Below are positions 5,058 through 29,383 of a stretch of 29,680 bases of DNA, piece by piece. The DNA is from a virus (Duplodnaviria; Caudoviricetes). Position numbers and translations under genes: made by a program. The notes beneath the pieces were generated by a model. That model worked only from the letters and a program-made list of their open reading frames with translations. It was not told where the DNA came from and searched no databases. The stretch lies in the IMG/VR virus record IMGVR_UViG_3300035181_000465, positions 1 to 29,680 of that record; one strand, given 5' to 3'. Every line of letters starts with the position of its first letter. Position 1 is the stretch's first letter.

Positions 5058-6377
5058 TCAAGCAAGAAATGCCATTGCATCTATCAGGTCAGTTGCACCT
5101 AAAGGTAGTGCGGCGCTCGTTGCAGCGGCACCTGCTGCACCCGTTCCACCTAAAAGGCCGGCCTTAACCAATCCGTTATAAAGTCCCAATCCACCAAGTC
5201 CTAGACCAACGGCATTGCCTAATGGGTTTGTGAAATACGGCTGCGATGCTGTTGCAGTGCCACCCAGTCTCGCGCCGTTTTGCACGATAGACGAGTAGTT
5301 GTTTAGGTTGTTCCAGTTGTGTTGATCGGCAGCATCAAGCAACCCTAAACGTTGCTGGTAATTCTGATCCTGTAGCGCGTTTCCGATGCCAAGCGTATTT
5401 AGGCCAGTAGTCCGGTTGGCGAGTTTCTGCTGAGCCAGTTGCATCGCTTGCTGGTTCTGCTGAAGCGCCAAGTTCGCGTTAAATGTCTGCGCCGCTAGTT
5501 GGTTAGCTGAATTGCTGGTTTGCGCCGACAAATCACGACTAGCATTAGATTGCGCGTTATTAACTCCAAGGCCGGCCATGTTGTTGGCCGTGCCATACAT
5601 ATTTTGCTGCGCTTGTTGATAGGCTTGGTTGTACATATTGTTCGCAACATCGCCCATCGAATAAAGCAGGCCACGACTTGCCAAGCCTTCTGCAATCCCT
5701 TGGCGTGATCCACCATATTGCCCCGAAGCAATAGCATTGCCGCGAATACCTGGGAGGACTTGTTCATTAAATCCCTCACCCAACCGGCGAAATGCTGATT
5801 GAACAACTGGGGCCAAGGTCGAAGTATCCGCTCTGCCGGTCAGCATTTGCTGGATCGCGCCAGTAGGATTCGCTGCGCCAAGCGAAGCAAATGCCTGGGT
5901 TGGGTCTACCATCTGCGCGACAATTTTGTCGGCTCCTGGGATGTCCCCAACTTTGGAAAGACTTGGATCGAACTGACCGCTGATAGCCGCATTGCCAACG
6001 CCATAAGCACGGCCAGACTGATCCGCCCGGCCTGCAAGGTTTTTGTTTTGCTCGTCAACGATGGCCTGCTGTTCAGGCCTCCAGCCGCCGCTCTGGTATA
6101 GGCGCTGCGCTTCGGAGAAAATTCCTGGCGCACCTACGGTTTCATAATCAGACGACGGGTTACTCAGGACGTTTTTAGTTTCCCATGCGCCGGAGCCTTC
6201 CCCACCGTCCCAAAACTTGCTGCCACCTCCGGTCGGGTTCCAGACTTGCTCAGTCTTGTAAATTGGCGCAACGCCTTGCTTCAAGCGCGTGGTTTGCGAC
6301 CCAAGCAAATATGGCTGCACGCCCTCCCAGGGTTCAGACTTTTGCGTGGTCGTGGTAGGGCTATCACCTTTAGACAT
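5058..6377 (-). CDS. DNA ejection/pilot protein (P22 gp7 position)
   Basis: 439 aa Gln/Ala/Asn-rich; MSKG..TTTTQ..PW start, GQYGGSRQGIAEG motif and hydrophobic Gly-rich C-terminus. Confidence 0.7.
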   Translation of the reverse strand: MSKGDSPTTTTQKSEPWEGVQPYLLGSQTTRLKQGVAPIYKTEQVWNPTGGGSKFWDGGEGSGAWETKNVLSNPSSDYETVGAPGIFSEAQRLYQSGGWRPEQQAIVDEQNKNLAGRADQSGRAYGVGNAAISGQFDPSLSKVGDIPGADKIVAQMVDPTQAFASLGAANPTGAIQQMLTGRADTSTLAPVVQSAFRRLGEGFNEQVLPGIRGNAIASGQYGGSRQGIAEGLASRGLLYSMGDVANNMYNQAYQQAQQNMYGTANNMAGLGVNNAQSNASRDLSAQTSNSANQLAAQTFNANLALQQNQQAMQLAQQKLANRTTGLNTLGIGNALQDQNYQQRLGLLDAADQHNWNNLNNYSSIVQNGARLGGTATASQPYFTNPLGNAVGLGLGGLGLYNGLVKAGLLGGTGAAGAAATSAALPLGATDLIDAMAFLA

Positions 6378-7073: not shown

Positions 7074-8626
7074 CACATGCCCCCGTTTTCGACATCTAGG
7101 TCATAGCTGTCGAGCCGCCATTGGTAAGCCGTTCCAGTCTCAAAACGTATCGCAATGTAGCGACCTGAGACAAGGCAGTCATCTGAAATCGTGGCTCCGA
7201 TTACGTGATCCATAACCCGGCCCCACGTAGGCTCTGCATATGGGTCATGGTTAGACCAGCCGACGCGGATTTTTACAGTTTCCCCGGCATTTCCGACGAT
7301 GCGCGGTCGAATACCTCGCACTAGTTTGATGGCTTCAGGTGCGCCGAAGGACAGTCCGCGCCGCTCAATGTATGCCTGCGGAATCGACCCGTCAAAGCTC
7401 GCTGACGAGTCCATCATGTAGAGCTTTGTATTGGCGCTCGCCATGATCGAACGCGCCGCGCTCGGAACATAGTCAGGGCCGTTCCACAGCGTCAAATCAG
7501 AATCCCACGGCGCTGAATCCTGCGCCCAGTTGCCGATTAGGCCGTTGTCCACTGGCCCAGGGGCCGCATGATTTAGGTTCGGAATCTCGCGGAAGCTCAC
7601 CGTCCGGTCTTTGTAGTTCCATACCATCGCCATGTTGCACGACGATGATCCGATTGCCGGATAGCAGACAAAAACCTCGTTGAAAAACGGGTTCTTGAAT
7701 ACAAAGCACTTGTCAGGATTATCAACGTCGATATTCTGGAACATATGCCGGCGCGTTTGCTTGTCAAGCACCGATTGCGCGCTCTGTCCATCATGGACGA
7801 TCACGTCTGATCCTGTCAGCACAACATGGAAGCCGTCAACCTCCACCACGCAGTTAGGATTCAATGCCCCGCTTGTGCCTAGCACTTTTGAGAACTGGAA
7901 CACATATGGGCCACCGATGTAGTCCATGCGCCAGCAGGAGTTCTGCTTATAGATCATGAACGAATTACGAAGCTGCAATCCGTCAACGATTGGGTCGTAG
8001 CCCTCTGCTAGATCGGCCTCGCCAGCGTCCTTTGTCGCATCCGTCTGATCCCATGTGACCGGCAATGCCCCAGGGTCAGCGGGGTGCGACCATTTGACCA
8101 TGAACGGGTAATTCTGGCCTGACTTCGTGACGTTCAGCGCCACCAGGAAATTCTTGAATGACCGGAGCGCCTTGCAGTAGGTGTTTGCCGGCCAGTTTGG
8201 TAGCTCTGAAAACTTGTTCGACGTATTCAGGCTCCAATACATCGGGCCGGTGCTGGTGTCTCCGCTGTTCAGGATCGGGACGCCAGACAAAAGCGTTCCA
8301 GTCCATTTGTTCGGGACGCCGTTCCGCGCTACCAATGGCGTGATATCTGTATGAACAGCCACGCCACCCGTGATGGTCACACAAAACACGTTGGATGCCG
8401 TGGCATAGACCCAGTACCGACCGCCGCCGACGTTACAAGGCATCACATACTGCGGCGCGAACGACGGAGAGTTATAGACCTCACCGTGCCCGTAGAACTG
8501 ATAAGCGTAGCCGTCTAGGAAGCGGATGTTTTTCGCATCCGTCCATGCATTGTTTGGAAGCTCGTGCTGGCTTAGGTCTTTGATGACGCCAACAGCACCA
8601 ACGGCTGGCACGCGAACCAGTGGCAT
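7070..8626 (-). CDS. tail hub/nozzle (stabilisation) protein (P22 gp10-like)
   Basis: 518 aa, beta-rich and aromatic; begins with G.IKDL...LP.NAWTDAKNIRF; position in podophage tail module. Confidence 0.75.
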   Translation of the reverse strand: MPLVRVPAVGAVGVIKDLSQHELPNNAWTDAKNIRFLDGYAYQFYGHGEVYNSPSFAPQYVMPCNVGGGRYWVYATASNVFCVTITGGVAVHTDITPLVARNGVPNKWTGTLLSGVPILNSGDTSTGPMYWSLNTSNKFSELPNWPANTYCKALRSFKNFLVALNVTKSGQNYPFMVKWSHPADPGALPVTWDQTDATKDAGEADLAEGYDPIVDGLQLRNSFMIYKQNSCWRMDYIGGPYVFQFSKVLGTSGALNPNCVVEVDGFHVVLTGSDVIVHDGQSAQSVLDKQTRRHMFQNIDVDNPDKCFVFKNPFFNEVFVCYPAIGSSSCNMAMVWNYKDRTVSFREIPNLNHAAPGPVDNGLIGNWAQDSAPWDSDLTLWNGPDYVPSAARSIMASANTKLYMMDSSASFDGSIPQAYIERRGLSFGAPEAIKLVRGIRPRIVGNAGETVKIRVGWSNHDPYAEPTWGRVMDHVIGATISDDCLVSGRYIAIRFETGTAYQWRLDSYDLDVENGGMW

Positions 8627-14499: not shown

Positions 14500-16606
14500 G
14501 GATCACTCCTGGTGCGGTTGGTGACATAAAAAAGTTGCCTTCTGGCTGCTCGGGCTGAATCGGAGGCGCGACAGGCAAAATGTCCGGAGACGATAGCACC
14601 TGCTGCACCGTTTGCAATACAAGGGCTTGCACTTCCTGTGGATTCATACCTGATTGAACAGCCTTTAGGCGTTGCGTTTCTGCATTGTATGCGTCGATCT
14701 CGATTTTGCGCAACTCAAGTGCTGTTTTCTCTTTTGCTTCCTGAAGCTGTTGCTGCAACTCTTGCGCCTGTTGCTGTAGCTGCTGGATTTGTTGGCCGGC
14801 CTGCTGTTGCAGTTGTTGCATCTGTTGTTGCATCTGTTGCTGCGCCTGCTGCTGCGCCTGGCCCTGCATTTGCCCCTGCCCTTGGATTTGAGCCGGTAGC
14901 ATAGCCTTAAACCGGGCCGCGATTTCTTCCGCATCCGGCCAATCAAGGCTCTTAACCAACAAGTCGCCGATCAACGGGGCCGCTGGCGGGTAGGCTCTCA
15001 GCAATTCTGACATTTGCGCCGCGATTTCCTCTCGACGGGTAGCGAATGACGGGCCAGCCTCCACAACGACGTCATAGCGCCCGACCGAAAGGTCATAGAT
15101 ACGCGATACGGCCTGTTGGGTCTCATCCAGCTCTTCCTGTGGCGACTCTGCACCTACTGTGATCGGCTGATTAACCGGTACTTTTGCCACGCTGCCATCC
15201 TCTCCGAGCACTCGCAAGATACGCGGCCCCGAATACACATGCGGGATTAGATCGACCACCACGCGGCCCAGGTGCCGGATCGCGCGGGTCATGTTGTCGA
15301 GAAAATGAAAATTCGTCAGACTGCTTTGCATCTTCCGAGCATTGATTGCGATGCCGGATGTTTCATTGCTGCGCTGGCCTAGAGATGGGTCGAAAATGCC
15401 CATGATGGATTTCATGTCGTCGCTTGCTGCCAGTGCCTCGCTCATCGCGCCCGCAGACGCCCCGGTGTCGAGCGGCTGACGCTGCGGCGGAGTCGGGCCG
15501 TCATATTCGACGTATGGGTGAGACGTAGTGTTAATCGTTGCCCATTTGGCCCCATCCGTTGCAAAAGCTCCACGCGGGCCAATGAACGGCACGCGCGGGG
15601 CCAGCGCCACCAGTTCCGTGCTCGTGGTGCGCCAGTAGTTCAGCATCCGCTGTGCGTCTTTGGAGTCGCGGATCAGGCTTCGCCAATAGCGTTTGCCCTC
15701 GACGTTAATATCATCCCCATAGACAGGGACGATCGGGATATAGATCCCAGGCCAATCGTTTTCTTCGAGAACTTCAGCGCCCGTTATGACGCGCTGTTTG
15801 ACCTTCCACGATTTCGTCTCACGATCTCCGCGAACCGTAATGCCTAGCAGGTCGAAATAGTCTTTAGCTTTGCTATATTGATCGGCATCGAGAATAGAGC
15901 CATCCGAAAGCTGTACGATCTTTCGAGCGACCTCCTCGCGCGTCCACCATTCAGCGATCTGGATGGCCTCGCCGTCCGCCCACGGAGCTGGCAAGCTGCC
16001 ATAGCCGGCTCCTTCCCAATCGACTTCTTCCGCGCCTTTGTATTTTTGACGAAAGGCGTCTTTTGTCATGCGGTCAACGATAAAGGCCGTATTCCAGTCG
16101 CTTGAATCCGCCGCTTCGCTCATCGGGTCGCCATAGACCGAGAACGGGTTAGGCACCCGCAAAATGCGCACGTCCATATCAAACGTATCATCATGCGCAT
16201 AGTCAATATCAACGCGAAGATAACCGATTCCGCATGAAACCGCGTATTCAACCGCCGTGTCATAGGCAACGTCGGCGTTGCTGATGTACTCGATATTGCG
16301 AAGCAGGCCGTTGATTACTTCAGCCGTTTCCGGGTCGGCCTTGTCATCGACTGGCTTTACCTTAATCGACGGCTTGTTTTGCCGCGCGTCATTAACGACC
16401 TGCCGGATAAATGACGGCAGCCGGTTGATGGTCAGGCACGGGCGGCCTTCTAACTCGCGCTGTTTGCGCACCGATTCCGGCCACTGCTCCGATAGCCGCG
16501 CGAATCGCAGATCGTCGAGGGCTTCCGCACGGTTATCAGATTCAGCCTGTACGGCTTCGTCAAACGCCTCTCGTGCGTCTCTTAGCAGGTCATCATCTTT
16601 TGCCAT
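14492..16606 (-). CDS. portal protein, P22-like
   Basis: Start re-called at MAKDDD (16606). DLRFA....QWP..RPCLTINRL, RDSKDAQRM.NYW and SNETSGIAI.AR motifs; Gln-rich C-terminal barrel. Confidence 0.93.
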   Translation of the reverse strand: MAKDDDLLRDAREAFDEAVQAESDNRAEALDDLRFARLSEQWPESVRKQRELEGRPCLTINRLPSFIRQVVNDARQNKPSIKVKPVDDKADPETAEVINGLLRNIEYISNADVAYDTAVEYAVSCGIGYLRVDIDYAHDDTFDMDVRILRVPNPFSVYGDPMSEAADSSDWNTAFIVDRMTKDAFRQKYKGAEEVDWEGAGYGSLPAPWADGEAIQIAEWWTREEVARKIVQLSDGSILDADQYSKAKDYFDLLGITVRGDRETKSWKVKQRVITGAEVLEENDWPGIYIPIVPVYGDDINVEGKRYWRSLIRDSKDAQRMLNYWRTTSTELVALAPRVPFIGPRGAFATDGAKWATINTTSHPYVEYDGPTPPQRQPLDTGASAGAMSEALAASDDMKSIMGIFDPSLGQRSNETSGIAINARKMQSSLTNFHFLDNMTRAIRHLGRVVVDLIPHVYSGPRILRVLGEDGSVAKVPVNQPITVGAESPQEELDETQQAVSRIYDLSVGRYDVVVEAGPSFATRREEIAAQMSELLRAYPPAAPLIGDLLVKSLDWPDAEEIAARFKAMLPAQIQGQGQMQGQAQQQAQQQMQQQMQQLQQQAGQQIQQLQQQAQELQQQLQEAKEKTALELRKIEIDAYNAETQRLKAVQSGMNPQEVQALVLQTVQQVLSSPDILPVAPPIQPEQPEGNFFMSPTAPGVIHE

Positions 16607-18755: not shown

Positions 18756-18816
18756 GTCTGCGCTCCTTCGTCGCCACGCATGTTTACACTTTGTAGCCAT
18801 TTTCTCATCAAGCCCC

Positions 18817-18844: not shown

Positions 18845-18918
18845 ACCTACCCATGGACAGCACAGAGCTTCCACCCGATCCCCGGGGTTCAGGGGCAAAA
18901 CATCGAAGGAGCAAGACA

Positions 18919-21826: not shown

Positions 21827-22704
21827 GTACCCTCTCCTTGCTGCTTGAACTTCTCCAGCCACTCTTGGCCGACGCGCCGGTTTTCTTCCTCAAGCGCGAT
21901 TTGTCGGTTGAAAAATGTCCGCTGCCCTTGCGCCTGCTGCCTGCCAGACTGCTTCGCGGACGTGTACCAATCTGCCCGAAATCCCTGCCAGCCGGCTAGG
22001 CAGCAATGGGAGATAGCGTCATGCAGGTTGATCCCGGCCTTGTCGGCTTCGCGCCTCATGCTGTCTAACACGGTCTGAGTGACCGGCCCTGCTCGCTTGG
22101 CTTTTCTGACCTCGAGCCAGTCGCTGAACGTCTGCTGGTCAACGTCAGTCGGGCATCCGGCGATGCGCGCGGCATGCGCGCCATTGCGCACGCTCTGCGT
22201 GCGCTTATCTATCTTTGGTGTTGGTGTTGGTGTTGGTGTTGGTGTTGGTGTTGGTGTTGGTGTTGGTGTTGGTGTTGGTGGCATTGCCATAGCATCGCTA
22301 TCACATGCCGCGGCATCATCTTTCAATGCCGCTGCATTGCCTAGTGCGGCATTGCCTAGTGCGGCATTGCCGAGCTTCGACCGCTGCACATCCCATCGCT
22401 TGTTCGCCTTCTCGCGCTGCTTCTGCTGCTTTTCGAGCATGGACAGAATTTCGTTATCCGCACGCTTGTTCACCCACCCGTCCTCGGTAAGCTCAAAGAA
22501 CTCCTCCAGCACCGATCGCACTGCTTCGCGCTGCGATTCTGTCTGCGCCATGACAAGGCGGCACACGGCGCGCAGCTCTGCCGGGAGCGGCTTCTCGGTC
22601 ATGTAGTAAACATCGAGCAGACGACGAAACGCTGCGTCCTCTTCCCAACTGAGGTGCCGCGTCGCGCTAACATAGTCCCCGATGTGAAAAGGGTAGTAGT
22701 TCAT
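21823..22704 (-). CDS. DUF1376/YdaU-family replication initiator
   Basis: Start re-called at MNYYPFHIGDY (22704, ATGA overlap with cro); TRHLS.EE..A.RRLLD.YY.TEKPL; C-terminal W...RKAK..GWQGF.ADW. Confidence 0.88.
   Translation of the reverse strand: MNYYPFHIGDYVSATRHLSWEEDAAFRRLLDVYYMTEKPLPAELRAVCRLVMAQTESQREAVRSVLEEFFELTEDGWVNKRADNEILSMLEKQQKQREKANKRWDVQRSKLGNAALGNAALGNAAALKDDAAACDSDAMAMPPTPTPTPTPTPTPTPTPTPTPKIDKRTQSVRNGAHAARIAGCPTDVDQQTFSDWLEVRKAKRAGPVTQTVLDSMRREADKAGINLHDAISHCCLAGWQGFRADWYTSAKQSGRQQAQGQRTFFNRQIALEEENRRVGQEWLEKFKQQGEGT
22215..22280. repeat. perfect hexamer microsatellite (TTGGTG)x11 encoding a Pro-Thr linker
   Basis: 66 nt of uninterrupted TTGGTG units. Confidence 0.97.
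22280..22374. repeat. iteron-like repeats, candidate replication origin
   Basis: 15-bp unit GCATTGCCTAGTGCG at 22334 and 22349, partial third at 22364; further GGCATTGCC at 22280 and palindrome TGCCGCGGCA at 22306. Confidence 0.6.
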
Positions 22705-22934
22705 TGCGAACCGCCTTGCAGCCGCTGCCGCATGTAGCCCCAATTGATATCCGGGCGCAGTTCCTCGCACGGAACGCCTGTCGCTGCTTCGATCTTCGGG
22801 CAAACCTTCACCGGAACCCGGCGTCGATTCGCCCACATCCAGATGCCCTGCTTGGTACTTCCGATGGCTCTGGCAAGTTGTGTAAGCCCCCCTGCCGCCT
22901 TGATAGCTCGATGTAGTCCATGTGCTTGTTCCAT
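22701..22934 (-). CDS. Cro-like HTH regulator (YdaS family)
   Basis: AIKAAGGLTQLARAIG....IWMW....VP...CPKIEAATGVPCEELRPDINW; AAGGAGC RBS. Confidence 0.9.
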   Translation of the reverse strand: MEQAHGLHRAIKAAGGLTQLARAIGSTKQGIWMWANRRRVPVKVCPKIEAATGVPCEELRPDINWGYMRQRLQGGSQ

Positions 22935-22945
22935 ATCTGCTCCTT

Positions 22946-23100
22946 AGTTGCGGGGTCGGCATGGTACGCACGAAGGAGAACAGTTGGCAAGCCGAGCGCG
23001 ACAGTTTTACACTCCGATTCACACTGTTACGCGCTGTTACGTGTTTCGTATGTTTGCCGTGTTTTCTGCGGTATACTCACGCCGCCGAACAACAATTCGG
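22946..23100. promoter_or_regulatory. divergent control region between cro and erf
   Basis: Non-coding; TATACT at 23072-77; CTGTTACG direct repeats 10 bp apart (23024, 23034); TTTACAC at 23006. Confidence 0.55.
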
Positions 23101-23120
23101 CGTCAACAAAAGGAGCACCC

Positions 23121-23804
23121 ATGAACACTGAACCGAAGGACGAACAAGACAAGCCGCGCACGGTCTATCAGCTCATCGCAGCGGTTGCTGGCGAGCTGGC
23201 TCAGGCCGGGATTAGCAAGAACCAGCGCAACACCCAGGGAGCGGGCTACAACTTCCGGGGCATTGATGACGTTTACAACGCGGTCGGCCCCGTGCTGGCA
23301 AGGCACGGGTTGGTGATCCTGCCGCGCTGCATATCGCGCGAGTGCATCGAGCGCGTGAGCGGCAAGGGTAACGCCCTGTTTTACGTCACGGTCGAGGCCG
23401 AGTTTGATTTCGTCAGCAGCATCGACGGGAGCAAGCACACCGTGACCATGTTCGGAGAGGCGATGGATAGCGGTGACAAGGCCACGAACAAGGCGATGAG
23501 CGCGGCCTATAAATACGCGATGTTCCAAGCCTTCTGCATCCCGACCGAGGGCGACAATGACGCGGACGCGCAGACTCATACGGTTATGTCTCGTGACAAC
23601 GAGCAGGTAGAAACATTGCACGCCGATCAGGTAGCCGCGATTAAATCTCTTGCCTCTGCTGTCGGCGTCGATATTGGAGCGATTTCCAAGTTCTACCGCG
23701 TCCGGTCAATCGATGACGTGCCTGCGGCGTACTACGAAAGCATCATGCGGTCACTCGAAAAGAAACGCAAGCCGACTGAACAAGCTCAAACTGCGGAGAA
23801 TTGA
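23121..23804 (+). CDS. ERF-family single-strand annealing protein
   Basis: Start re-called at 23121 (AAGGAGC RBS); YNFRGIDDVYNA, GEAMDSGDKATNKAMSAAYKYA..IPTEGDNDAD motifs. Confidence 0.9.
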   Translation: MNTEPKDEQDKPRTVYQLIAAVAGELAQAGISKNQRNTQGAGYNFRGIDDVYNAVGPVLARHGLVILPRCISRECIERVSGKGNALFYVTVEAEFDFVSSIDGSKHTVTMFGEAMDSGDKATNKAMSAAYKYAMFQAFCIPTEGDNDADAQTHTVMSRDNEQVETLHADQVAAIKSLASAVGVDIGAISKFYRVRSIDDVPAAYYESIMRSLEKKRKPTEQAQTAEN

Positions 23805-24948: not shown

Positions 24949-25389
24949 ATGCTTAACAAAGTCCAATTGATTGGCCGTGTCGGGAAAGACCCTGAAATTC
25001 GTCACATGGCAAACGGCGATGCGGTTGCGAATTTCACTATCGCCACATCGGAGCGTTTGAAGGACAAGCAGACTGGAGAAGTCACGGAGCGCACGGAATG
25101 GCACAACGTCTCAGCGTTTCGCCGTCTTGCTGAGATCATCGGTGAATACGTGCGCAAGGGGTCGCTTGTCTATATCGAGGGGAAGATTCAGACAAGGAAA
25201 TACATGAAGGACGGCGTAGAACACTATTCCACCGGCATCCTCGCATCTGAGCTTAAGCTGCTCGGCGGCAAGAGCGAAAGCCGAGAACAGCAGCCGCAGG
25301 ATCGCCGAGCGCCCGCTGTAAGGCAAAACACTCAGAAGCCTAACCAGGGCAGCGGGTTCGATGATCTTGACGATGACGTGCCGTTTTGA
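24949..25389 (+). CDS. ssb: single-stranded DNA-binding protein
   Basis: MLNKVQLIGRVGKDPEIR..TEWH..KGSLVYIEGKIQTRKY; acidic DDDVPF tail. Confidence 0.97.
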   Translation: MLNKVQLIGRVGKDPEIRHMANGDAVANFTIATSERLKDKQTGEVTERTEWHNVSAFRRLAEIIGEYVRKGSLVYIEGKIQTRKYMKDGVEHYSTGILASELKLLGGKSESREQQPQDRRAPAVRQNTQKPNQGSGFDDLDDDVPF

Positions 25390-25402
25390 TTAGGAGGCGA
25401 AG

Positions 25403-25540
25403 ATGAAACCTGAAACCAAGTTTGTATCTATTCGGATGCCTGTCGAGCTTGTTAAGCAGATAGACGCGCTAGCGAAAGAATCGATGCGCAGCCGCACGGC
25501 GCAGATTCTCGTGATTTTGATGCAAGCGTTGAAGCGGTGA
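25403..25540 (+). CDS. Arc/CopG-like ribbon-helix-helix regulator (45 aa)
   Basis: Not in ORF track. AGGAGG RBS; MKPETKFVSIRMPVELVKQIDALAKESMRSRTAQILVILMQALKR fits the RHH pattern. Confidence 0.85.
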   Translation: MKPETKFVSIRMPVELVKQIDALAKESMRSRTAQILVILMQALKR

Positions 25541-25546
25541 TATACT
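25517..25546 (+). promoter_or_regulatory. extended -10 promoter overlapping the RHH stop codon
   Basis: TTGATG(25517-22)-N18-TATACT(25541-46) with TGn extension at 25538-39. Confidence 0.6.
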
Positions 25547-25552
25547 GCGCCC

Positions 25553-25606
25553 GCTCCTTCGGTGCTTTTCGCACCACTTCGCCCCGCCCCGTGCGGGGCT
25601 TTTTTA
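25553..25606 (+). ncRNA. predicted ~54-nt sRNA with 5' anti-SD seed
   Basis: Bounded by promoter and terminator; 5' GCUCCUUC, hairpin GGUGC-UUUUC-GCACC, terminator hairpin; no ORF. Confidence 0.5.
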
Positions 25607-25609
25607 TTT
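25581..25609 (+). terminator. Rho-independent terminator
   Basis: GCCCCGC-cccgt-GCGGGGC followed by TTTTTTATTT; at the junction of convergent units. Confidence 0.9.
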
Positions 25610-25786
25610 CGGCCAAGCAGGGTCGGCAAGTTTCTCGCTCAAGTACAGACGCCATGCATACGTGAGCCGCTTCCGATTGCGCCACTGGTACGCGGTGATC
25701 GGCTTCACGCCAAGGACTCGGGCCAGCGCTCGGACGGTGCCGCCGCATCTGGCAACGGCTGCATGGATGATTTCTTCGTCAGTCAT
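25604..25786 (-). CDS. small Cro/CI-like HTH protein (60 aa), apparently leaderless
   Basis: AVARCGGTVRALARVLGVKPITAYQW HTH; upstream TTGTTT(25821-16)-N17-TAAACT(25798-93)-N6-ATG. Confidence 0.75.
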   Translation of the reverse strand: MTDEEIIHAAVARCGGTVRALARVLGVKPITAYQWRNRKRLTYAWRLYLSEKLADPAWPK

Positions 25787-25947
25787 AGCCCGAGTTTACA
25801 CCGGTAGCGCACGGGAAACAAGGGTTGCCTTGTTACCAACTTTTACACTTTATTCTCGCGTCCTCTAGAGTTTGCTGGCGATTTGTAGTATACTAGCGTA
25901 AACGTAGCGACGGGATGCTGCGGGATCAAAAGCAACAGGAGCAAGCA

Positions 25948-26169
25948 ATGGGAACACCATACAAGACAAAGAAAGGCATAAAGATCGGTTCTGCCTACTA
26001 CCAAAAACTCCAGCGCTACGGAATAGACAGCGATGCCAGTCTGCTTCAGGATGCGCTTCTTCGAAAAGACACTGGGCGGCGCGAGTTTCTAACAGAGGGA
26101 CGCATGACGGCTTTCATGCTTGCCATGATCGTTGTCGTTGTCTCGTGCATCGCTGCGGGGTGGCTGTGA
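25948..26169 (+). CDS. hypothetical protein with C-terminal TM helix
   Basis: AGGAGC RBS, ATG 25948; PYKTKKGIKIGSAY..LQDALL; TATACT at 25889 upstream. Confidence 0.7.
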   Translation: MGTPYKTKKGIKIGSAYYQKLQRYGIDSDASLLQDALLRKDTGRREFLTEGRMTAFMLAMIVVVVSCIAAGWL

Positions 26170-26405
26170 TGGACATCGAAACCCGCGTGGCAGGCATACC
26201 CTGCGTTGTGCGCGTGACGTATTTCGCACCAGCCGACCTTGGATGCATGGGTGGCGAGGCTTATTTTTGGCGTCCACCGTCTCCGCCTGACATTGAGTAT
26301 TACATCCTAGACCGACTCGGTAGACCTGCGCCGTGGCTTGAGAAAAAGCTCAACAACCGTGAGCGCGATCGGATAGAAGATGAGATTGTTGAGGCGTTGT
26401 CATGA
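26169..26405 (+). CDS. conserved phage hypothetical protein
   Basis: TGATG coupling; IETRVAGIPC..ILDRLGRPAPWLEKKL motif. Confidence 0.75.
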   Translation: MDIETRVAGIPCVVRVTYFAPADLGCMGGEAYFWRPPSPPDIEYYILDRLGRPAPWLEKKLNNRERDRIEDEIVEALS

Positions 26406-26635
26406 CTACATCGATACAAGAGCGCATCTGGCAGACATTGCGCGATGAGGGCGGGTATTGGAGTGCTCGGGAGCTACTCGCACATCTGCGCGAGAACGAT
26501 CCGGGCGGCACCTATCACAAGCGGAACGTGGTGCGAACGCTCAATGCTCTAGTGCGTGATGGCTGTGTTGTTTCCAAGCCGTCAATGATCGGCATTGAAG
26601 TCTACGGCGTCACATTGCGATGCCGCGCACCTTAA
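26402..26635 (+). CDS. winged-helix-like protein (paralog A)
   Basis: IWQTLRDEGGYWSAREL..L..L...G.V..YGVT..C; paralog at 29030-29332. Confidence 0.7.
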   Translation: MTTSIQERIWQTLRDEGGYWSARELLAHLRENDPGGTYHKRNVVRTLNALVRDGCVVSKPSMIGIEVYGVTLRCRAP

Positions 26636-27112: not shown

Positions 27113-27469
27113 ATGCGATATGTATCCAGTGTATCCCAACATGGGAATAGCTCTTGGAGCATCAGTAGTCAGGCTGAAGCAGATTGCCGCTGTATGGCGC
27201 TCGACGACGCTGGATGCGTCGACTGTACCAACTGCATCGGATGCATTGGTTGTTCCGACTGCACAAACTGCATCGGCTGTGCCTACTGCGTAGGCTGCGC
27301 CGGATGTGCCGACTGTACAGACTCTGTCTGATGCACCGGATGCACCGGATGCGCAAATTGCATTAGCTGTTTCGGCTGCACTGGCTGCACTGGTTGCACT
27401 GGCTGTTTCGGCGGTCTCGACTGCATAAGCTGCGTTGATTGCGACGGCCGCATAGGGCGAGATAACTAA
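27113..27469 (+). pseudogene. (CXX)n cysteine-repeat gene with in-frame TGA at 27329-27331
   Basis: AGGAGG RBS; 12 CXX triplets before the TGA and 12 more in the same frame after it, ending at TAA 27467-69. Confidence 0.65.
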
Positions 27470-27534
27470 TATCAGCTTCGCGGAATGTCGTATTACAAAC
27501 GTACTGATTAACGCACTAACGGAGCGGCCACAAA

Positions 27535-28197
27535 ATGGTGAAACACAAGATGAGAGTTATTACACAAGATGAGTTTGATGCGCTCCCAGTAGTCGACGGC
27601 ATCAAACGATGCCCTACCGGGGACTACTCGCAAATAGAAAAGTTATACGAGCGTTGTAGCTTTGGCAAGTTTTGCATCTTTAGCGCTGGGCGCAGCTTCG
27701 GTAGGTCTTGCAGATTCGGTAGGTCTTGCAGCTTTGGCGTTGGGTGCAGCTTTGGCGAATGTTGCGGCTTTGGCGGCCATTGCAGCTTCGGCGAGTATTG
27801 CAGCTTCGGAGAGTCGTGTTGCTTCGGCGGTGGTTGCAGTTTCGGCGGTAGTTGCAGATTCGGCATGTGGTGCCGTTTCAGCGGTCATTGCAGCTTCGGC
27901 ATTTGGTGCTGGTTCAGTGGTCGCTGTAGATTCGGCCAAAGGTGCATTTTCAACGGGAAGCGCGCAAAGCCAGGCTATCCGATGCTGGCATTGTCCGGCG
28001 CCGGCAGTGCCAATCGAACGGTATACGCTTTCAACGTCGAGGGCGGCCCCTGGATTGAGGCCGGATGCTTCTCTGGAGACCTTGATTCGTTTCGCGCAAA
28101 GGTTCGTGCAGATGGCGACGCGCTTAAGTGTCTGCAATACCTAGGATTCGCAAACATCGTCGCCGCGACCTGGTGTCCTGAAATGATCGAGATGTGA
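27535..28197 (+). CDS. hexapeptide-repeat (CSFGxx) beta-solenoid protein
   Basis: 17 tandem hexapeptides; C-terminal GS..RT.Y.F..I.AGCF.G.L..F domain common in phage repeat proteins. Confidence 0.8.
   Translation: MVKHKMRVITQDEFDALPVVDGIKRCPTGDYSQIEKLYERCSFGKFCIFSAGRSFGRSCRFGRSCSFGVGCSFGECCGFGGHCSFGEYCSFGESCCFGGGCSFGGSCRFGMWCRFSGHCSFGIWCWFSGRCRFGQRCIFNGKRAKPGYPMLALSGAGSANRTVYAFNVEGGPWIEAGCFSGDLDSFRAKVRADGDALKCLQYLGFANIVAATWCPEMIEM
27655..27960 (+). repeat. 17 x 18-bp coding tandem repeat (consensus TGCAGCTTCGGC-N6)
   Basis: Read unit by unit in frame; first 12 nt semi-conserved, last 6 nt variable. Confidence 0.9.
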
Positions 28198-29033: not shown

Positions 29034-29332
29034 GCACTGCCGATGCGATCGAACGGCAGCGACAACTGCCTGGATAGAAGCAGCGCATGGCGATGGATGC
29101 CCGCGAGCGCAGTCGTGCGATCTGGCTGGCGCGGCGAGATGAAGGTGGCTATTGGATCGCGCGCGAGCTGATTGACCATCTGCGCGAAATTGACCCTGAC
29201 GGCGGGCATTGGACTCGATCAGTCACCAGGGCTCTGAACAAGCTCAAGGCCGACGTGCGCGTGGTTGCGAAGCCCAACCGGTATGTGGTTGAAACCTACG
29301 GCGTCACGACATTGTGTAGCGAGCCCAAATGA
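29030..29332 (+). pseudogene. winged-helix-like paralog B with in-frame TAG at 29075-29077
   Basis: ATG 29030 is coupled to the upstream stop and in frame with ORF 29087..29332, separated by one TAG; could also be an intact gene from 29087. Confidence 0.5.
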
Positions 29333-29383
29333 TGACCATGAACGGCGATTTTTGACAAACGATTCTTGATGGAAGGAGCTGGA

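Follow-up and report, generated by a model that had tools for sequence, protein, structure and literature searches.

A predicted small RNA (sRNA) of 53 nt, encoded directly behind an Arc-like gene of a phage, likely pairs in trans with the ribosome binding site (RBS) before the first gene in each of five early operons and so damps early translation. The unit is real and probably functional, and its most likely role is that of an early-gene translational damper or timer. Because its seed mirrors five RBSs and both sides change together in a related phage, L208, early protein synthesis is likely turned down as a group. If this is true, one 53-base RNA reading a shared RBS tag would provide RNA-only timing of the early-to-late switch, and a host regulator family would have been repurposed by a virus.

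Genome setting and anatomy of the sRNA unit

The DNA analyzed (the window) is the complete 29,680-base virus record IMGVR_UViG_3300035181_000465 of IMG/VR. Comparison of its 47 proteins with PHROGs identified a podophage whose head genes are P22-like and whose early region is lambdoid; there, cro-repO-repP-ninB-ref-rusA are read leftward and erf-exo-ssb-RHH, followed by more small genes and dut, are read rightward. The divergence of cro and erf (window 22701-23121) is lambdoid, with about 190 bases between them and CI absent there. A near relative, G004 (loci L121 and L523), shares 87-94% DNA identity with the window across most aligned blocks and joins both window ends, supplying the remainder of dut together with genes for an SNF2-like helicase and a methylase and an Rz-like gene; in L523 (1906-5530), the helicase and the DNA methylase close the circle without an integrase. 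Neither a tyrosine integrase nor an S24 peptidase was matched in these two records (0/2), which agrees with an initial annotation of the window as a phage with no visible CI, and no partition gene or antirepressor was recognized among the 47 window proteins scanned against PHROGs. A few kilobases are possibly unseen, since the CheckV completeness of the window and G004 records is 80% and 86% and an identical RHH sequence was found on a 39,996-base contig. The RBS style and GC content point to a host among the Betaproteobacteria. The unit and its surroundings comprise the following features.

25403..25540, plus strand: Arc-like ribbon-helix-helix (RHH) gene directly upstream of the unit (Pfam Arc and RHH_1 above cut-off)
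25517..25546, plus strand: predicted sigma-70 promoter with a weak -35 and an extended -10; overlap and spacing kept in L208
25553..25605, plus strand: predicted double-hairpin small RNA, 53 nt (sequence and fold)
25553..25560, plus strand: unpaired 5' seed GCUCCUUC, anti-Shine-Dalgarno (fold and complementarity)
25561..25575, plus strand: first hairpin, 5 bp (fold)
25581..25605, plus strand: intrinsic terminator, 7-GC-pair stem (25581-25599) followed by T6; 25 bases identical in L208
25604..25786, minus strand: Cro-like HTH gene, 60 aa, predicted leaderless (HTH matches all below cut-off, best E value 2.4e-5)

The extended -10 promoter, the hairpin, and the strong terminator lie where the initial annotation had placed them, as judged from the sequence, a promoter scan, and the fold (z = -4.1; 0/200 shuffles equally good). 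The -35 (25517-22) sits within the RHH gene. The extended -10, TGnTATACT, reads TGATATACT at 25538-25546 (TTGATG-18-TATACT with TG in the promoter scan), and its TG is part of the RHH stop codon. Directly from the expected +1, G25553, which is the seventh base after the -10 hexamer, the RNA begins with GCTCCTTC. The proposed 9-nt seed is 8 nt long as free sequence (unpaired probability at least 0.99); its ninth base, a G, is in the hairpin, which is opened by the next five bases. The 5' arm of this hairpin extends the complement to the RBS of gene 18919. A short 5-base linker, ACUUC, separates the first hairpin from the terminator, which ends in a U6 tail and likely doubles as the end of the erf-exo-ssb-RHH operon. 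In Hfq-dependent trans-acting sRNAs, a U-rich stretch and the tail of the terminator contact Hfq. The HTH gene on the minus strand converges on the terminator, its stop codon overlapping the U tail. It is predicted to be leaderless because a -10 hexamer lies six bases upstream of its ATG, and its mRNA may run on in antisense through the sRNA and RHH genes, since the minus-strand hairpin has no U tract. It is without a counterpart at the corresponding place in L208.

The same arrangement would arise without a separate RNA if an ordinary erf-operon terminator happened to follow a mirror-image RBS, left by chance or as the relic of a lost minus-strand gene. An operon end requires a terminator anyway, the -35 is weak, promoter-like sites are about as numerous in the window (9) as in shuffles (7.2), and many matches to a CTCCT-terminator pattern in other phages are simply the RBS and start codon of a gene on the other strand. 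We nevertheless regard this explanation as improbable. Behind the mirror RBS, the minus strand has no start codon in the window or in L208, for which reason a hidden minus-strand gene there was rejected, and L208 keeps the hexamer-to-seed spacing, the stop-codon overlap, and the two-hairpin fold despite differing spacer bases. Few 9-mers of the 262,144 possible match the first-gene leaders equally well (10 for the window; 2, or 12 in the other register, for L208), although the counts of 10 and 2 overstate the case because any anti-Shine-Dalgarno sequence scores well.

Predicted targets in the phage leaders

The window contains three divergent promoter pairs. All five first genes with leaders carry AGGAGC; the sixth first gene, the predicted leaderless HTH gene, had been missed in the initial annotation. 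Every RBS quoted there is correct, the eight that match as well as the three of structural genes. The predicted targets are listed with their ranks by accessibility-corrected binding among 45 genes.

18904..18912, plus strand: predicted target RBS CGAAGGAGC of first gene 18919; rank 1 of 45
18762..18770, minus strand: predicted target RBS CGAAGGAGC of first gene 18755; rank 4 of 45; kept in L121
22939..22945, minus strand: predicted target RBS AAGGAGC of cro, first in the replication operon; rank 15; GAAGGAGA in L208
23110..23116, plus strand: predicted target RBS AAGGAGC of first gene erf; rank 3; 12-nt match to its own seed in L208
25937..25942, plus strand: predicted target RBS AGGAGC of first gene 25948; rank 7; CGAAGGAGA at the L208 counterpart
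29372..29379, plus strand: predicted target RBS GAAGGAGC of dut; rank 2 of 45

These targets lie 0.4-6.8 kb from the unit and match it over 6-9 nt. The dut RBS ends in T in the near relative, and a G-U pair is thereby kept. The five first genes rank 1, 3, 4, 7, and 15; terL ranks 9, capsid 24, scaffold 28, and portal 41. With early and late classes and gene starts as assigned within this analysis, first genes differ from late genes in accessibility-corrected binding (p = 0.0003), and other early genes do not (p = 0.28). It is the promoter-first genes that carry the complementarity signal, rather than the early genes as a class. An enrichment of GGAGC in early leaders, suggested earlier as a check, is modest (8/27 early versus 1/19 late, p = 0.043); among GGAG-type RBSs, the counts are 8/14 and 1/8 (p = 0.052), and for seed matches of at least 7 nt they are 5/27 and 1/19 (p = 0.20).

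Structural-gene RBSs had been described as ending differently. This is correct for the three quoted, but matches at terL (GAAGGAG, 7 nt; the RBS is AAGGAGC in L121), at ejection gene 3494 (GGAGC), and in the portal gene at 16015 on the minus strand had been left out. The portal-gene match spans 8 nt (window 16008-16015, minus strand) and precedes an ATG that lies out of frame and opens a frame of 52 codons. The ranks of terL, a moderate match, and cro (9 and only 15) count against early damping, as does the AAGGAGC of terL in L121. For the five first genes of the window, its seed falls within the best 0.44% of the 4096 possible seeds (N-CUCCU-N5) and within the best 1.8% of the 1024 that already contain CUCCUU; figures conditional on CUCCUU are the fair ones, since any anti-Shine-Dalgarno sequence scores well. 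Four late AGGAG RBSs are unmatched by the window seed (87.5%).

A further point against early damping is that AAGGAGC is an ordinary betaproteobacterial RBS. The initial annotation had stated that the idea would fail if GGAGC were equally common in host RBSs, and this is partly so. In three stand-in betaproteobacterial genomes, the holders of L318 (Achromobacter), L335 (Variovorax), and L397 (Sulfuritalea), raw AAGGAG-N-ATG counts for C/A/G+T are 117/94/103, 164/151/138, and 66/89/94. Thus, C follows AAGGAG in 27-37% of sites, with 66-164 AAGGAGC-ATG sites per genome, and the AGGAGC tag is not private to the phage; in the third genome, the C pattern is barely above its backwards control (66 versus 61). 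Full 9-nt sites before ATG number 6, 32, and 7 per host genome (controls 4, 8, and 11) versus 2 in the phage. Among unrelated fetched loci, AGGAG is followed by C in 20% of cases at a GC content of 0.50-0.62 (n = 583) and in 40% at a GC content above 0.62 (n = 122), and by A in 36% and 26%, respectively. If independence is assumed, the chance of C at five of five sites is about 0.007 at 37%, and that of A at three of three sites is about 0.04.

Phages L125/L126 and L131-L134 use AAGGAGC widely. GAAGGAGC stands at many early genes in other phages, and the promoter-seed unit was absent from the 5 incomplete records searched. A long RBS leader with CGAAGGAGC at its end recurs before many early genes of L125 and L126, preceded by repeated hairpin cassettes; one of these leaders has a 13-base complement to the 5' end of the window RNA.

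The L208 orthologue and searches for further copies

Searches with Erf (80+80+80 loci), exonuclease (80 loci), and RHH (4 loci) yielded one independent syntenic orthologue phage that has the unit, L208 (a 7,397-base record that also appears as L502 and L535), and no third orthologue. Close protein relatives of Erf, P0003-P0015, share 74-80% identity. L208 is a syntenic cro/erf/exo/ssb/RHH phage (46-80% protein identity) whose proteins overall are 34-80% identical to those of the window. Its copy keeps the RHH stop codon that supplies the TG of the extended -10, the hexamer, a six-base spacer, the G at +1, a seed followed by a hairpin, and a terminator identical over 25 bases; the identity of the spacer bases, the hairpin sequence, and the seed have changed. 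A search for the unit in related phages, as had been recommended, found the anatomy conserved but the seed itself altered, with the RBSs altered in step. The L208 seed reads UCUCCUUCGGG instead of GCUCCUUC, and the RBSs of cro, erf, and the first gene beyond the unit are GAAGGAGA, as against AGGAGC in the window. At all three orthologous first-gene RBSs (3/3), C after AGGAG has become A, and in the seed G has become U.

The L208 seed pairs over 12 nt at erf and 11 nt at the gene next after the unit. Own seeds give more extra paired bases than swapped seeds in both phages (13 versus 8 and 13 versus 9). The L208 seed is in the top 0.05% of the 4096 seeds for its three first genes, in the top 0.02% for all 14 AGGAG RBSs, and in the top 0.2% of the 1024 seeds already containing CUCCUU. 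We interpret the paired change of seed and RBSs as compensatory; read from these alignments, it supports the earlier proposal of a trans-acting sRNA on early first cistrons, as does the lack of integrase and CI-peptidase matches in the window and its near relative. The covariation extends to one nucleotide plus a short extension, and C-type sites make up 4/14 of the L208 AGGAG RBSs. By energy, the window seed is nearly as good on the L208 leaders (-16.1 versus -17.2) and better at 1/3 of them, and the unit is represented by two independent copies only; these two points count against early damping. L121 adds no independent evidence because its 500-base intergenic stretch is wholly identical to that of the window. 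A MAFFT alignment of the two copies misplaces the seed, and two sequences are unable to test structure by covariance. The two natural seed/RBS pairs constitute a built-in swap control, and the unit would be cheap to test with reporters.

Seed and RBS differing in step between relatives would also be expected if the RNA of a resident phage silenced the early genes of superinfecting kin, the seed/RBS pairs setting immunity groups. CI was not found in the window, the adjoining leaderless HTH gene would escape such an RNA, and c4 sequence differences underlie P1/P7 heteroimmunity (PMC12197685, PMC6906374). We consider immunity quite improbable as the main function. Swapped seeds still pair over 6-9 bases, which is weak ground for specificity, and the HTH gene is missing in L208. 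With no integrase and no recognized partition genes, a stable resident state is not evident.

Other copies were sought with sequence patterns. A loose TATACT-gap-GCTCCTTC pattern matched 120 loci in viral contigs, which we read as chance matches; a seed-plus-hairpin pattern matched 6 loci (1 near relative, 2 opposite-strand RBSs, and 3 inside genes); and seed-plus-terminator patterns matched 30 and 44 loci, of which the near relative and L208 were the only syntenic ones. The unit pattern had no match in a prokaryote genome collection. The exonuclease had matches in 401 + 172 + 301 bacterial genomes, and 12 stretches inspected held no other gene of the phage module. No GenBank phage record spans the region, and a terminator scan of six related podoviruses revealed no such unit. 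The unit is absent at the corresponding place in L233, L400, L131-L134, L536, and L537. In two other RHH relatives, the gene is not followed by an RNA, a further point against early damping.

A survey covered 507 terminators in 326 loci, which had been retrieved either through a protein or as complete phage records; 43 have an extended -10 upstream, and 2/43 carry CTCCT at the start, one being L208. In an own-versus-cross test on 25 seeds (9 loci with fewer than 4 RBSs excluded; the L288 and L503 units set aside as probable opposite-strand RBSs), 12 unrelated promoter-seed-terminator units fit their own RBSs inconsistently (ranks 3-25 of 25). This weighs against early damping, in that self-targeting does not follow from the anatomy by itself. 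The unrelated phages L478, L499, L514, L503, L484, L500, L492, L497, L512, L521, L293, and L295 show a -10-like site with a 5' CUCCU seed, a U-rich linker, and a terminator, and their seeds fit their own RBSs inconsistently; the L499 and L514 copies lie on one contig. In L282, an int-alpA RNA motif lies above its cut-off at 6127-6193 (minus strand).

Relation to known RNAs and proposed mechanism

The initial annotation had named P22 Sar, P1 C4, and P4 CI as precedents; the anatomy is nearest to a host family, the betaproteobacterial toxic small RNAs (RF02278), instead. No Rfam family reached its cut-off in the window. The RF02278 covariance model gave a sole match at E ≤ 1, 25552-25606 with 12.9 bits, and control genomes also give matches around such scores; the L208 copy scored 28 bits (E = 7e-4 in 301 bases). 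Neither phage copy reaches the gathering cut-off of 50 bits, and each of the three host genomes has one member above it. The original report on RF02278-type RNAs is said to have described toxicity in E. coli. Like the unit, the RF02278 RNAs ncS03, ncS05, ncS27, and ncS62 of Burkholderia cenocepacia have a free CU-rich 5' end that complements RBSs and then two hairpins, of which the second is a terminator (PMC5688073, PMC4603805). They are described as double-hairpin RNAs of 57-92 nt; in 55-80% of their predicted interactions the CU-rich stretches lie over an RBS, and growth is slowed when they are overexpressed (PMC5688073). Two papers call their function unknown (PMC4603805, PMC6321483), and the unit would offer a handle on it. 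The predicted folds of the unit have two hairpins, the second an intrinsic terminator, and its unpaired CU-rich 5' stretch is complementary to RBSs. The 5' consensus UGUCUCCUCC and the second CU-rich stretch in the first hairpin are lacking in the window, which has GCUCCUUC and a UUUUC loop; L208 matches 8 consensus bases and has the inner CU stretch. Host members read UGUCUCC, hairpin, short linker, and terminator. The described members are chromosomal, whereas the present unit is phage-borne and its predicted targets are the phage's own early leaders. The unit may derive from such host double-hairpin sRNAs, with the seed retuned to phage RBSs.

This likeness underlies the main rival, host shut-off, in which a real, phage-borne double-hairpin copy lowers host translation broadly and the fit to phage RBSs is a by-product. 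The L208 copy opens with the 8 bases of the RF02278 consensus, AAGGAGC-ATG sites abound in betaproteobacterial genomes, the published growth effect fits, and other phages carry sub-threshold RF02278-like units (e.g., L482, 45.9 bits) with seeds unfit for their own RBSs. Both phage seeds, however, read CUCCUUC and not the host consensus CUCCUCC, departing from it where pairing to phage leaders improves; host seeds bind the phage leaders more weakly (means of -10.0 versus -17.0 and -8.8 versus -17.2 kcal/mol). Full 9-nt sites are rare in the hosts relative to the two in a 30-kb phage, and an RNA with such a seed would strike the phage's own first genes hardest. We hold host shut-off to be rather unlikely as the main action, and it is not exclusive of early damping.

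Sub-threshold RF02278 matches occurred in 27/50 phage records, most of them picked for a CTCCT-terminator match, and 0/50 exceeded the cut-off. The L482 match (7877-7934, plus strand) lies between two large genes in a structural-looking block, and a phage unit in L480 (10012-10074, plus strand) scores 34 bits. In related phages of freshwater type, an RF02278-like double hairpin stands at the end of the late/lysis operon (L134 12627-12678 and L133 9403-9455, both minus strand). Nine bases of its 5' stretch are complementary to the erf RBS, the other RBSs are mostly AAGGAGC, and no promoter was seen for it. Matches to suhB, RyhB, anti-hemB, and SorX were rejected as terminator-driven and far under cut-off.

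The unit is like c4 in logic and RF02278 in build and belongs to neither by the tests run. The C4 model (RF01695) had no window match at the gathering score and none at E ≤ 5 in 25300-26000, and the predicted targets are five first genes, not the RBS of an antirepressor operon of the icd-ant type. The c4 RNA is processed from its own target operon, and P22 sar adjoins an arc gene. The c4 RNA of P1/P7 likewise pairs with short sites near a phage RBS and blocks translation, and its sequence too varies slightly from one relative to another in concert with its targets (PMC12197685, PMC8198154, PMC6906374). It is described there as controlling one operon (icd-ant) beside the C1 protein repressor through loop sequences, whereas the present unit has a single 5' seed with matches in five operons. 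Sar of P22 is likewise a short phage RNA that blocks translation initiation of a phage gene, but it is cis-antisense to ant only (PMC12197685); the unit follows the Arc-like gene in the same sense and complements its targets in trans over short stretches, lying neither opposite them nor matching them over its full length. On these accounts, c4 and Sar each target one phage operon. The prophage anti-sRNAs AgvB and AsxR (PMC4104026) are 51-60 nt long with a conserved 3' part, a variable 5' seed, and a Rho-independent terminator; they lie 3' of PR' and sponge host sRNAs, whereas the unit has an anti-RBS seed at the end of a recombination operon. The literature searched, with most subscription journals outside reach, contained no paper on a phage-borne RF02278-like RNA or on a single phage sRNA that masks RBSs in several early operons.

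Under early damping, the sRNA would be transcribed from its own sigma-70 promoter, and it would be made early together with its targets because the TATACT hexamer is shared with the erf and 25948 promoters; perhaps cleavage of the erf operon mRNA near its 3' end additionally yields it. Its shortness and presumed stability would let it build up over time and as DNA copies increase, and its accumulation would exert delayed negative feedback on the first cistrons. A first-cistron block would silence downstream genes via lost coupling or polarity, and the capsid, portal, and scaffold leaders would escape. The sRNA would act as an early-phase damper or an early-to-late timer in a phage with no CI or integrase found. 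A bolder version, which we regard as unlikely, is that this CI- and integrase-less phage of lambdoid layout captured a host double-hairpin sRNA as the master RNA repressor of every early operon, with co-drift of seed and RBSs, possible immunity groups, and a leaderless HTH gene that escapes the RNA and possibly opposes it by convergent transcription.

Several minor features of the window were observed. A GTTGGT tandem repeat at 22227-22279, which encodes a Thr-Pro run in a replication protein and has direct repeats nearby, is a possible origin region. Cys-rich repeats occur at 27200-27470 and 27650-27950, in genes 27113 and 27535; the 27113 frame ends at 27331, and the repeats continue beyond it. 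Two small genes, 26402-26635 and 29087-29332, are paralogous, and the 29087 protein matches the relative's 26402-type gene at 55%.
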